In this document: positions 1,399-18,254 of the stretch, piece after piece | How positions within the stretch are numbered: the first letter of the stretch is position 1 | How the letters are laid out: every line of letters begins with the position of its first letter | DNA from: an uncultured bacterium | GTDB taxonomy: Bacteria > Cyanobacteriota > Vampirovibrionia > Gastranaerophilales > Gastranaerophilaceae | Assembly: GCA_949282215.1 (NCBI GenBank) | Contig: CASDPF010000007.1 | Location: forward strand, 13,506-77,505 | Direction of reading: 5' to 3' | DNA length: 64,000 bases | Program-made: the position numbers and the translations under genes | Notes under the pieces: model-generated | The model's database searches: none | What the model was told of the DNA's origin: nothing | The model's input: only the letters and a program-made list of their open reading frames with translations

Positions 1399-2142
1399 TT
1401 ATTTACATTTATTATTTCCATTCCAGGATAATTGTTCCGGACACTTCAAATAATCAAGATTTTCTTTATATATAACCCAAGCAGTGCAACCATAACCATC
1501 ACTACCCGAAGCCTTACAGTCTTCCTCAAATGTTCTTGAGCCAATATCTCCTCCCATAGGTACAATCTTATTCTGATATACAAAGAAATAAAAAACATCC
1601 TTTCCTACTGTATTAGGTTTCTTATCTACACCATTAATATCAACAGCGAAATCCCCGCAGGAAATAGTTTGGGTACAATCTATCCTACTAAACCAACCTC
1701 CAATAAATATCGTACCATCTGCAAGTTTAATCTGAGTAGTTGAATGTTTACCTTCCCGAAGAGCACCCGATAATTCATACTGTTCAGGAATTAAGCAATT
1801 ATTACCTCTGTCATGACAAACTGAAATAGTTTTCATATAAGGAATTAATTTTGACCAAAATAACTCACTGTTATCGTAGACGATATCATCATGAAAACCG
1901 TTTTCATCTCTGTCAGAATTATTGATATTCCCTTCAAACCCCCAATTGTTTATTTCTCCGTTTTCATTTCGAGCCATCAGATAGGCCTGACTAATCGTAC
2001 TGTAGGCTTTCTTTAACTTGTTCACCGTAATTTTATCCTGATGTTTTTGTACAAGAGCAGGCAGTGTCATTGCAGCAACTATTCCGATTATTCCTAAAGT
2101 AACAAGTACTTCAGCTAACGTAAAAGCTTTTTTCTTTCTCAT
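1399..2142 (-). CDS. prepilin-type N-terminal cleavage/methylation domain protein (type IV pilin/pseudopilin-like)
   Basis: N-terminus MRKKKA|FTLAEVLVTLGIIGIVAAMTLPAL matches the class III signal (FTLxE plus hydrophobic helix). An SD GGAGG lies just upstream. Confidence 0.85.
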   Translation of the reverse strand: MRKKKAFTLAEVLVTLGIIGIVAAMTLPALVQKHQDKITVNKLKKAYSTISQAYLMARNENGEINNWGFEGNINNSDRDENGFHDDIVYDNSELFWSKLIPYMKTISVCHDRGNNCLIPEQYELSGALREGKHSTTQIKLADGTIFIGGWFSRIDCTQTISCGDFAVDINGVDKKPNTVGKDVFYFFVYQNKIVPMGGDIGSRTFEEDCKASGSDGYGCTAWVIYKENLDYLKCPEQLSWNGNNKCK

Positions 2143-2278
2143 ATATCCTCCGATTAAATACCATCTTTTATTTTATAAATTTTTGTAACAGAAACCACCG
2201 TGTCAAATGGCACGGCTTGCATCTTAACTTCTTGAGACTTTAATCGGAGATTAGGGTCAAAAAAGCTTGATATACCTT

Positions 2279-2332
2279 TTAGTAGGTAGCCCCCCCCCCC
2301 GAAATCAAAGATATGCAAAGATTTTTCATCAT
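2279..2332 (-). CDS. leader uORF A, 17 codons (MMKNLCISLISGGGATY)
   Basis: GGAGG-N5-ATG. The frame runs through the G11 tract as GGG GGG GGG. The stop and the ISGGGAT[NY] end are shared with uORF B. Confidence 0.45.
   Translation of the reverse strand: MMKNLCISLISGGGATY
2290..2300. repeat. C11/G11 homopolymer inside uORF A
   Basis: Counted directly: 11 consecutive C on the plus strand. Confidence 0.95.
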
Positions 2333-2393
2333 TTTGACCTCCATTTTATATGATATATTTTATCATATTTCTTTCTTAATATCAACATCAAAA

Positions 2394-12438: not shown

Positions 12439-13206
12439 TTACCAAGGATAATCCTCTTTCATTTGCCAACCGTCATAAATAAGTAATGCGGCGCAATAAC
12501 CTCCAGCATAAGCTGCATTGGAGCCCTTCTTACATTTATAGTTTGGCATATCAACAGTTTCCCCGCCTTCAATTAAATCATTGCGTTCTGGTAAAACTTT
12601 ACAATCAAGTCCTTTCGGATAAAAGCCTAACCTTCTTAAACAATCATCAGGTGAAATTTGTACTTTTGGGGCATTTCCCCAGCTCATAACAAATGGGAAA
12701 ATATCGTTTCCAAGCATATTTGGCTTTTTCATCGGGCCATTAACATCTATCCAAAACCAAGCTCCTGTACCACTAGCATGAGGCCAATAAAGAACAGAAT
12801 AACCTGATGCAGTCACAAATGCTCCATGACCGCTAATACCTGATGAATCAGGCACAAACACTTTATTGTCAAGTGTAAAAGTGTTTTCTGCCCAACATTC
12901 TGAACTTACCGGAATACATTTTTTTATAACTTTTATATATGGAAACAGAAAATTTTCACTAATATATAAAAGTCTATCCTCGCTAGACTCAAAATCAGAC
13001 AAATCCCAGCTGTCTAAAGTTCCATTATCTTTTTGAGCCAATAAAACAGCTTGATTAATTTCAGAATACGCTTTTTTTAATTGGTTAATAGTTTGTACTT
13101 TTTTGTATTTTCCAACAATGACGGGCATTGTCATTGCAGCTACTACACCGATGATACCAAGCGTTATAAGCACCTCTGCCAAAGTAAAAGCTTTTTTCTT
13201 TTTCAT
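12439..13206 (-). CDS. prepilin-type N-terminal cleavage/methylation domain protein
   Basis: Start moved to ATG 13206 (GGAGG upstream): MKKKKA|FTLAEVLITLGIIGVVAAMTMPV. The C-terminal DGWQMKEDYPW is shared with 55322..55990. Confidence 0.85.
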   Translation of the reverse strand: MKKKKAFTLAEVLITLGIIGVVAAMTMPVIVGKYKKVQTINQLKKAYSEINQAVLLAQKDNGTLDSWDLSDFESSEDRLLYISENFLFPYIKVIKKCIPVSSECWAENTFTLDNKVFVPDSSGISGHGAFVTASGYSVLYWPHASGTGAWFWIDVNGPMKKPNMLGNDIFPFVMSWGNAPKVQISPDDCLRRLGFYPKGLDCKVLPERNDLIEGGETVDMPNYKCKKGSNAAYAGGYCAALLIYDGWQMKEDYPW

Positions 13207-13340
13207 AAAACCTCCATTTGTTTTTATTACCTGTTTCTCAAAAATTTTGCAACACAAATTACCGTGTCACTTGGCACGGTTTATATCTCAGCTCTTTTCT
13301 TTACATCGGAGGTCTAAGTCGGAAATGCTTGATTTAACTG

Positions 13341-13391
13341 TTAGTTGGTAGCCCCCCCCCCCGAAATTCTATCTATCAGTGTTTTTTGCAT
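13341..13391 (-). CDS. leader uORF B, 16 codons (MQKTLIDRISGGGATN)
   Basis: AAGGAGG-N5-ATG. The G11 tract is read as GGG GGG GGG. It has the same C-terminal ISGGGAT[NY]-stop as uORF A. Confidence 0.45.
   Translation of the reverse strand: MQKTLIDRISGGGATN
13352..13362. repeat. C11/G11 homopolymer inside uORF B
   Basis: Counted directly: 11 consecutive C on the plus strand. Confidence 0.95.
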
Positions 13392-13467
13392 ATGGTCCTC
13401 CTTGTTTTTGTATATTAATATTATAAAGTATTTTTTTTATTATTTCAATACGTGCTATAATAATTTT

Positions 13468-17657: not shown

Positions 17658-18254
17658 TTATTGCATTGATTTATTTGAACTCAAATATTCTTTTTCTTTC
17701 ACACCGGTAACATACATTTTACCATCAGGCTGTATAAAAATTTCAAACCTGTCAGGACTGTGGCAATCCGTTGCAGAATAGCTGCAATTAGGCTTTCTGT
17801 CCCCATTTACATCAACAATTATACTTTTATCCGAATCAAAATCAGTATATGGCATATACCAACTAATACCATCAGTGGTAACAAAAGATGGTACATTTGA
17901 ATCTGTAGGGACTCTTGAACCTGCTACGCAGCTTATATTATTATTTATAGTGTTTACCTTTGCTGCAAATAATTTACAAAATTTATCACTGCCACTATAT
18001 AACTCATCATTGTATTCAACCTCACTGACATTATCTAATCCAACTGATGTTCCTTCTCCAATAGGATACAGCGTTTCATCGTTAACAAGCTCACTTACCA
18101 TCCTTTCTGCAACATAATATGCTTTTTTAAACAAAGCCTTATTTTCATTAGGACGTACTTTTGATACTGCAGGAAGTAATATTGAAGCCAATATACCAAG
18201 AATAGCCATCGTAATCATTACTTCTGCCAAAGTAAATGCTTTATTATTCCTCAT
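17658..18254 (-). CDS. prepilin-type N-terminal cleavage/methylation domain protein
   Basis: MRNNKA|FTLAEVMITMAILGILASILLPAV. Confidence 0.85.
   Translation of the reverse strand: MRNNKAFTLAEVMITMAILGILASILLPAVSKVRPNENKALFKKAYYVAERMVSELVNDETLYPIGEGTSVGLDNVSEVEYNDELYSGSDKFCKLFAAKVNTINNNISCVAGSRVPTDSNVPSFVTTDGISWYMPYTDFDSDKSIIVDVNGDRKPNCSYSATDCHSPDRFEIFIQPDGKMYVTGVKEKEYLSSNKSMQ

Follow-up and report, generated by a model that had tools for sequence, protein, structure and literature searches.

The 64,000-nucleotide (nt) stretch of contig CASDPF010000007.1 analysed here (the window; 32% GC), from an uncultured Gastranaerophilaceae bacterium, carries two runs of eleven G (G11) on its minus strand, each inside a short upstream open reading frame (uORF) ahead of a prepilin-like gene. 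The G11 tract is best read as the core of a slipped-strand contingency switch that acts through the reading frame of the uORF and that stands before dozens of prepilin-like genes of the DUF6613 family. The probability of this reading is put at roughly 0.6. Its mutational basis is seen as alleles in populations, and its regulatory effect is what we infer.

The two tracts, at 13352-13362 (leader B) and 2290-2300 (leader A), are the sole G or C homopolymers of at least 7 nt in the window, in which 6 overlapping G9 matches are observed and 0.03 are expected from shuffles. Both uORFs have a strong Shine-Dalgarno sequence (SD) ahead of them and lie about 135 nt 5′ of a prepilin-like gene with its own SD and ATG. 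They stop 8 nt past the tract, 5′ of a sequence complementary to the downstream SD (anti-SD). The two leaders are 81% identical, and the ATTTC-G11-CTACC block is unchanged between them. Their parts, with the gene that each precedes, are the following.

13420 to 13448, minus strand: promoter of leader B, TTGAAA-17-TATAAT (11/12 in a consensus scan; a -10 box lies at the matching place in 33 aligned copies).
13397 to 13403, minus strand: SD of uORF B, AAGGAGG (from the sequence; kept in the copies).
13341 to 13391, minus strand: uORF B, 16 codons plus UAA, reading MQKTLIDRISGGGATN-stop (sequence and translation script).
13352 to 13362, minus strand: G11 tract of leader B, codons TCG GGG GGG GGG GCT, equal to the modal length of the family.
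13319 to 13325, minus strand: UUUCCGA, predicted first partner of UCGGGG at the 5′ edge of the tract (RNAalifold; pairs kept in 29-33 of 33 copies, with changes from GC to GU only).
13306 to 13312, minus strand: anti-SD CCUCCGA, with two predicted alternative partners, UCGGGGG of the tract and the pilin SD (minimum free energy (MFE) folds of 33 copies, RNAalifold and the accessibility model).
13288 to 13290, minus strand: UGA that ends the G12/G9 frame of uORF B, 8 nt 5′ of the hairpin (translation script).
13261 to 13280, minus strand: terminator-like hairpin of leader B, ACCGUG-CCAAGUGA-CACGGU with a U-rich tail (stem invariant, loop CCAAnnGA; in the MFE fold of nearly all copies).
13210 to 13216, minus strand: SD of pilin-like gene B, UGGAGGU (from the sequence; pairs with the anti-SD in the RNAalifold consensus).
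12439 to 13206, minus strand: prepilin-like gene B, 255 amino acids (aa), beginning MKKKKA/FTLAEVLITLGIIGVVAAMT (Pfam N_methyl, weak; DUF6613).
2357 to 2385, minus strand: promoter of leader A, TTGATA-17-TAAAAT with a TG (10/12 in a consensus scan).
2279 to 2332, minus strand: uORF A, reading MMKNLCISLISGGGATY-stop (sequence and translation script).
2290 to 2300, minus strand: G11 tract of leader A, also G11 in 8 independent assemblies.
2242 to 2250, minus strand: anti-SD of leader A, UCUCCGAUU, the complement of its own pilin SD, AAUCGGAGG (from the sequence).
2197 to 2216, minus strand: hairpin of leader A, GCCGUG-CCAUUUGA-CACGGU, terminator-like and conserved.
2154 to 2156, minus strand: UAA that ends the G12/G9 frame of uORF A and abuts the pilin SD (translation script).
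1399 to 2142, minus strand: prepilin-like gene A, 247 aa, with its SD AAUCGGAGG at 2147-2155 (N_methyl, weak; DUF6613).

Tract length decides which part of the leader a ribosome on the uORF could cross. A sequence-only reading of the window had placed both G11 tracts in frame in short uORFs and had proposed that a single length class carries ribosomes over the anti-SD. The coordinates and translations of that reading were reproduced by script, and variants of both uORFs from G9 to G14 were translated in the same way. At G11, and likewise at G8 and G14, both uORFs end 8 nt after the tract and before the anti-SD. At G10 and G13, both also end 5′ of the anti-SD. Only the G12/G9 frame crosses it. 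In uORF B this frame reads ..GGGGYQLTVKSSISDLDLRCKEKS-stop, passes through CCUCCG and ends soon after, at UGA 13290-13288. In uORF A it runs across the anti-SD and the hairpin to UAA 2156-2154. Each of these paths agrees with the earlier proposal, which erred in one distance: 11 nt lie between the long-frame stop of uORF A and the pilin ATG (14 nt from the first base of the stop), where 13 had been claimed. The long frame ends 84 nt (B) or 11 nt (A) before the pilin, and neither window leader yields an ORF fusion. With a pilin that retains an SD and ATG of its own and a long frame that stops short of it, a switch of this kind would act through the anti-SD and the hairpin rather than through fusion.

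Leaders A and B are two copies of a ~210-nt leader family of Candidatus Gastranaerophilales, termed type I here, which was found in metagenome-assembled genomes (MAGs) of this group by a pattern scan with the tract length left open. The MAG BRZ_P__bin23 holds 30 copies, all oriented ahead of a pilin-like gene that starts MKK(R/K)NAFTLAEV. Their tracts are G11 in 26 copies, G12 in three and G10 in one. A second MAG has one copy, with G13. The order of parts over 33 copies is -10 box, AAGGAGG, uORF, UUUCCGA, CCUCCGA, variable spacer, hairpin, AT-rich spacer, CGGAGG and pilin ATG. The uORF consensus is ATG CAA AAA nnn nnn ATA GAn AGA ATT TCG-G11-CT ACC (A/G)AC TAA, with the peptide MQKxxI[DE]RISGGGAT[ND]-stop, and the hairpin consensus is RCCGUG-CCAAnnGA-CACGGY with a U-rich tail. 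Codons 3, 7 and 8 of the uORF vary mainly at the third position (AAA/AAG, GAG/GAT/GAA and AGA/AGG), which fits real translation of the short frame. No such support was found for selection on the peptide of the G12 frame, in which leaders A and B differ at codon positions 1 and 2.

The frame rule of the window leaders holds across the family. The short-frame stop lies at +8 in 33 of 33 type I copies (TAA in 30, TAG in two). No stop closes the G12 frame before +58, beyond the anti-SD, and in 21 of the 33 it ends at +61, ahead of a hairpin that starts between +69 and +74. In 28 of 33, the G10 frame ends at +15. In the copy at L039:1-165 (plus strand), GTTC-G9 replaces ATTTC-G11, and the loss of one T and two G keeps both the short frame and its stop. 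The tracts of the MAG and window copies are all uninterrupted, though GGG is the least used Gly codon, and a tract-independent search within the fetched loci found no leader copy without a tract. In 216 kb of MAG loci, all 31 G or C runs of at least 7 nt fall within pilin leaders, a count biased toward leaders because the loci were fetched by a tract-containing pattern; the only run outside type I is the G9 of another pilin leader. A further metagenome scan with a tract-independent pattern gave 16 matches, of which three are true relatives and the remainder GC-rich chance matches.

The family is numerous, and its presence at a given locus varies. The leader core is ~90% identical among the 30 paralogs while the pilin bodies diverge. 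Logan contigs at 13288-13383 reach ~100 times the depth of the flank in four gut metagenomes (about 1800 versus 18), so the leader core is a high-copy repeat in those samples. Such a ratio implies either that each genome equivalent carries dozens to about 100 leaders or that several species live together in the samples, and the repeat (window 13288-13383) is a point at which contigs break. Within the window, the leader is present before only two of five prepilin-like genes. A positional ortholog of pilin B in a related species (63% identity, upstream of the gene at L060:8001, L060-L064) shares two neighbours with locus B, C_GCAxxG and an antiporter, and lacks the uORF, the G tract and the hairpin; the leader was therefore gained or lost at a fixed locus. 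Another candidate ortholog of locus B, L004, was ruled out by BLAST. Rfam gave no gathering-score match in the whole window apart from two tRNAs, and none at E≤1 over 13150-13460.

Length alleles are found at fixed loci between populations, with lengths read from assemblies and Logan contigs rather than from single reads. Assembly ERZ28614323 has G11 at each of the three G12 loci of the BRZ MAG (L011, L023 and L024b); the pilin there is identical, and 0-2 bases of the leader are different. The G12 state of L011 was found again in X36 and X37, two runs of another sample pair, and G12 at L023 and L024b was seen in the BRZ assembly only. The G10 state of L021 recurs in ERR4096294, and the same locus is G11 in SRR29409643 and SRR30169968 with an identical pilin protein. 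Since these non-G11 loci are G11 elsewhere with identical pilins, the tract is polymorphic at fixed loci. The alleles of L011 and L021 are not assembly noise, because each recurs in at least two datasets. Minor contigs with G12 in X6 (below single-copy depth) and with G10 in X1 are at most suggestive of switching within a population. At locus B of a diverged strain in X4, the run spans 13 nt with one non-G base within it. RNA-derived leader contigs (two runs, depth 2-4) have G11, which is uninformative about minor forms. The tract is the most changeable site of the leader, and its modal length is still strongly dominant. A T7/T8 run ~40-55 nt 5′ of the pilin ATG also differs in length between L083/L084 and L082 at the same locus; other leader homopolymers therefore vary too.

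The sequence-only reading had treated the tracts as a contingency locus, and had cautioned that two tracts of exactly equal length might reflect selection or assembler behaviour. The variable length that the former proposal needs is seen at four loci, which are G11/G12 or G10/G11 with identical pilins, and is not seen at the window loci themselves, which are G11 in every assembly found. An assembler artefact can be discarded, as most length states recur in independent datasets. The equality of the two window tracts is neither chance nor an assembler effect, because G11 is the modal length of the leader family.

Leaders of three other types place a G tract at the same point of the frame logic. 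In type II (L065-70, L075 and L076), the uORF ends ..CTC GGG GGG GGG GCA ... TAA; seven assemblies have G10 here, and one contig, at 2x coverage, has G9. With one additional G, uORF and pilin ORF become a single frame (404 aa in L065), and the pilin ORF has neither a start codon nor an SD near AFTLAEV. In type III (L074), the uORF MKKHTMIDFQPGGGGLR-stop contains G12 and is directly followed by CCUCCUGA; here the loss of one G fuses uORF and pilin. The sister leaders of types II and III are thus continuous uORF-pilin ORFs broken only at the tract. Over the 193-415 nt from tract to AFTLAEV, they are open in the pilin phase only (P = 5e-5, 1.5e-4, 7.5e-4 and 0.019 for linker openness in mononucleotide shuffles). 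The fusion sites are the following.

L065, 7783 to 8270: type II fusion site.
L075, 1555 to 2090: type II fusion site.
L076, 2915 to 3270: type II fusion site.
L074, 2980 to 3210: type III fusion site.

Type IV (L023:2860-3030, plus strand) is closer to type I in layout, with a promoter, AAGGAGG, the uORF MKNEIIALKLLWGGALLTV-stop containing G9, UCCUCC, a second SD and MKLKAFTLAEV. Its CCUCC is crossed only by the G10 frame, which stops just after. The short-frame peptide ends in Gly-Gly-Gly-Ala in types I and II, in Gly-Gly-Ala in type IV and in four Gly in type III, with a stop within 2-5 codons, and the assembled state is nearly always the short frame in all four types. The behaviour of types II-IV means that the rule of one length class, leading either across an anti-SD or into the pilin, recurs in unrelated leader sequences.

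Several further observations concern these sister leaders. Gene callers put spurious TTG starts on the fused ORFs (P0056, P0007 and P0027). P0007 and P0027 were considered as fusions in the ON state and rejected: in both, the SD-led uORF occupies a different frame, and the long protein results from extension by the gene caller. Translation of the type II linkers yields strings of the 'ARND' type, suggestive of an inserted hairpin repeat. Hairpins of 6 bp lie 1-2 nt 5′ of the tract at L065:7850-7866 (AGAAGC/GCUUCU) and L075:1613-1630 (GGAACG/CGUUCC), and none is present in L076 or type I.

RNA folding adds a second possible role for the tract, which the sequence-only reading had overlooked. The tract is predicted to pair with UUUCCGA and CCUCCGA and would thus compete with the pilin SD for the anti-SD. 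Across the 33 copies, the MFE structure shows either UCGGGGG:CCUCCGA, with the next G's on UUUCC, or CCUCCG paired with the pilin SD. The RNAalifold consensus contains UCGGGG:UUCCGA, CCUCCG:CGGAGG and the 6-bp hairpin. In type III, flank and partner change together (CAGGGGG:CCUCCUG versus UCGGGGG:CCUCCGA), which is one compensating example. In partition functions, the mean probability over the 33 copies that the pilin SD is unpaired is 0.30 for free RNA. Keeping the short uORF plus 12 nt single-stranded lowers it to 0.01, and keeping the G12 frame plus 12 nt open raises it to 0.71; the latter value is partly built in because the model masks the anti-SD. The value of 0.01 is non-trivial: in the model, translation of the short uORF removes the competing G tract, and the anti-SD clamps the SD.

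The mechanism that we infer joins uORF translation and these RNA pairings to an ON/OFF effect with some rate of switching. A consensus promoter would drive the ~210-nt leader, whose first element is the strongly SD-led uORF holding the tract. At G11, ribosomes would read Gly-Gly-Gly-Ala and terminate 8 nt past the tract. Translation of this short frame would keep the G tract single-stranded, so that CCUCCG could clamp the pilin SD and the hairpin could form, and the pilin would be OFF. Slippage that adds one G (G12) or removes two would place ribosomes in the sole frame that crosses UUUCCGA and CCUCCG. They would reach the foot of the hairpin in B-type copies and the pilin SD in copy A, thereby unmasking the SD and probably opposing termination or polarity, and the pilin would be ON. 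A fuller version of this scheme is less likely than not. In it, the tract would double as a mutational frame switch and a structural anti-anti-SD, giving three states (untranslated and partly open, short frame and clamped OFF, long frame and ON) at 30-100 independently switching loci per genome, with one or few pilin-like proteins per cell.

A number of observations weigh against a contingency switch. The window loci do not vary among the available populations. Locus A is G11 in 9 of 9 assemblies, eight of them beyond the window, from different studies and including a strain with leader single-nucleotide differences, and four runs each give one clean contig across its tract, with no variant contigs at 7-21x depth. 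Locus B is G11 in 3 of 3 assemblies (two beyond the window, L050 and L051), in the X1 contigs and in those of X3, which include a diverged strain. In type II, the six assemblies of the L065-type locus all have G10, as does L076. G10 and G13 are rarer than G11, which is unexpected if both OFF frames are equivalent and points to extra selection on the short frame or to toggling between n and n+1 with a bias. Among the copies, no G9 allele was found in the long frame; the sole G9 copy, L039, stays in the short frame. On the RNA side, the accessibility test is in part circular, since it masks the anti-SD, and the pairings show no covariation. The paired columns are invariant or change from GC to GU only, so covariation neither supports nor contradicts them. 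A last objection is that transcription might not need the leader. BRZ copies, for example L001:4440-4475 (minus strand), have a conserved segment AATGTTAAAATA(A/G)AAAATAGTATA between the hairpin and the pilin SD, which is not found in window leader B. Inside it, many copies contain the extended -10-like sequence TGTTAAAAT, which may be a second promoter that bypasses the leader and drives the pilin independently. This is countered by one metatranscriptome contig that passes through the hairpin, and by types II and III, which need co-transcription.

The invariance of modal-length loci across samples would be expected if the DNA length were fixed and the shift occurred in RNA. Slippage of RNA polymerase on a run longer than the RNA:DNA hybrid, or a ribosomal -1 slip on G GGG GGG, would then bring a fixed fraction of transcripts or ribosomes into the long frame and give low, stochastic and non-heritable expression of each pilin gene, with DNA variants as by-products. 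All four leader types strongly conserve a modal length and a short-frame stop 2-5 codons past the tract, a layout typical of programmed shift sites. L039 retains the short frame through its loss of one T and two G, and the hairpins just 5′ of the tract in L065 and L075 resemble those of stem-loop-assisted slippage. Type I has no stimulatory hairpin 5′ of its tract, however, and type III needs the loss of a G where types I, II and IV need a gain, which fits two-way polymerase slippage but not a one-directional ribosomal frameshift. A slippery run, a nearby stop and a conserved ORF in the shifted frame are all present, but these features are common to contingency loci and do not discriminate. 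Heritable G12 and G10 alleles exist as well, most of them in more than one dataset, and show that DNA slippage does happen. Programmed recoding is considered unlikely.

Less likely again is translational attenuation in which slippage has no part. The tract would then serve as an anti-anti-SD and as Gly codons, and the rate of uORF translation or decoding (set by ribosome supply, Gly-tRNA or arrest by the conserved peptide) would determine how often the free tract sequesters CCUCCG and, through this, pilin translation, much as in leaders of the ermC/cat type. The predicted rivalry between UCGGGGG:CCUCCGA and CCUCCG:SD, the SD accessibility of 0.30 in free RNA against 0.01 with the uORF occupied, and the compensating flank change of type III are all consistent with it. 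So are the third-position variation at uORF codons 3, 7 and 8 and a Gly-rich short-frame peptide that is kept though the tract lengths differ (G11 in I, G10 in II, G9 in IV and G12 in III). The related suggestion of the sequence-only reading, a sensor of rare GGG codons, fares poorly: with 12.3% of Gly codons (7.5 per 1000 codons), GGG is the least used Gly codon without being rare. Pairing needs ~6-7 G and Gly3 needs no homopolymer, yet none of the MAG and window copies has a synonymous interruption; in a genome rich in AT, a run of 11 pure G would not persist through its role in a peptide or in pairing alone. Attenuation also leaves unexplained the open, pilin-fused other frame of types II and III and the length alleles. 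At the far end of the scale, the leader could be chiefly a repeated DNA element (a substrate for recombination or gene conversion, or a mobile-element remnant) or a small transcription unit ending at the hairpin, with no role of the tract for the downstream gene. The ~90% identity of the core in 30 paralogs with diverged pilin bodies, its ~100-fold contig depth, the leaderless ortholog of locus B and the terminator-like hairpin point that way. This is very improbable given the constant orientation and spacing ahead of the pilin start, frame rules that are kept in sequence-unrelated variants, fused ORFs in types II and III that require co-transcription, and the metatranscriptome contig that crosses the hairpin.

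The hairpin itself has a feature of separate interest. Terminator loops are usually free to vary, and the loop CCAAnnGA (window 13262-13279 and 2198-2215, minus strand) is conserved over about 33 copies. Judged from this pattern, a protein or an RNA may bind there.

The genes downstream have the features of prepilins: a short basic leader, a cleavage motif, Glu at +5 and a hydrophobic N-terminal helix. Three of the five prepilin-like genes of the window (12439-13206, 1399-2142 and 17658-18254, minus strand) have Ala, not Gly, at the -1 position of the cleavage site. No pilus assembly genes were noticed near the prepilin-like genes. The DUF6613 prepilin-like family has more than 7,000 relatives in public data, and those with a named source are Gastranaerophilaceae.

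Gastranaerophilales are common, uncultured gut bacteria, and we know of no account of gene regulation in them. A literature search found no paper on pilin regulation or phase variation in Melainabacteria or Gastranaerophilales. The closest known system is the sortase-pilus switch of Bifidobacterium breve UCC2003 (bbr_0113a/b and bbr_1889a/b), in which a main ORF that lacks a start of its own is preceded by a short SD-led ORF and a G tract (Penno et al., 2022; PMC9187656). The reference genome of B. breve has its pilus genes in the OFF state; replication slippage produces ON variants, which are enriched in vivo in the gut (PMC9187656). Both systems belong to gut commensals and join a pilus gene to a short SD-led upstream ORF with a G tract between frames. 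Types II and III (L065, L074-L076) share the B. breve layout exactly, as their main ORF has no SD or start. In contrast, the type I pilins of the window carry an SD and ATG of their own and are not reached by the long frame. The B. breve switch also concerns sortase pilins at two loci, whereas the genes described here are type IV prepilin-like members of DUF6613 and number dozens per genome.

Other known systems share single elements with the type I leader. The poly-G/C loci of Campylobacter, Neisseria (pilC, lgt and hmbR), Haemophilus and Helicobacter also have a long, pure tract near the 5′ end of a frame, alleles that differ by one unit between close relatives, genes for surface structures and many independent loci per genome (PMC6321876; PMC5084427). 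They differ in that the Gastranaerophilales tract sits in a separate 16-codon uORF, that one length class is dominant, and that the host is an uncultured, AT-rich, non-pathogenic member of a sister lineage of the cyanobacteria. The tlpB leader of Helicobacter pylori contains a variable G repeat that pairs with a C/U-rich RNA near the ribosome-binding region (PMC8295292). In tlpB this partner is the trans-acting small RNA RepG, whereas here the predicted partners (UUUCCGA and CCUCCGA) lie in cis and the repeat is within an ORF. Attenuation of ermC and cat likewise involves an SD-led leader ORF, a segment of which competes with the downstream SD, and the position of the ribosome selects the pairing; the input proposed here is the reading frame and not drug-induced stalling. 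Finally, the 5′ untranslated region of Haemophilus influenzae hmw1A has a transcribed simple-sequence repeat with a complementary arm in a regulatory hairpin, but that repeat is a heptamer, is untranslated and acts via RNase III (PMC12721329). Set beside these systems, type I would be a contingency tract placed in a separate uORF that gates an anti-SD clamp, a known trick in a new form and in a lineage for which nothing comparable has been described.

In annotation, the genes behind these leaders will be misread, with spurious TTG starts, apparent pseudogenes and contigs that end at the repeat. Existing deep metagenomes allow tract states to be read directly. If the switch operates as proposed, the choice of uORF frame as the gate of an anti-SD clamp would extend contingency loci beyond promoter spacing and ORF truncation. 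Gastranaerophilales would then vary their surface stochastically, as mucosal pathogens do, which would bear on colonisation, on evasion of phages and immunity and on strain tracking in metagenomes. In the fuller version with 30-100 switching loci, the combinatorial surface variation would be on a scale so far known mainly from pathogens.

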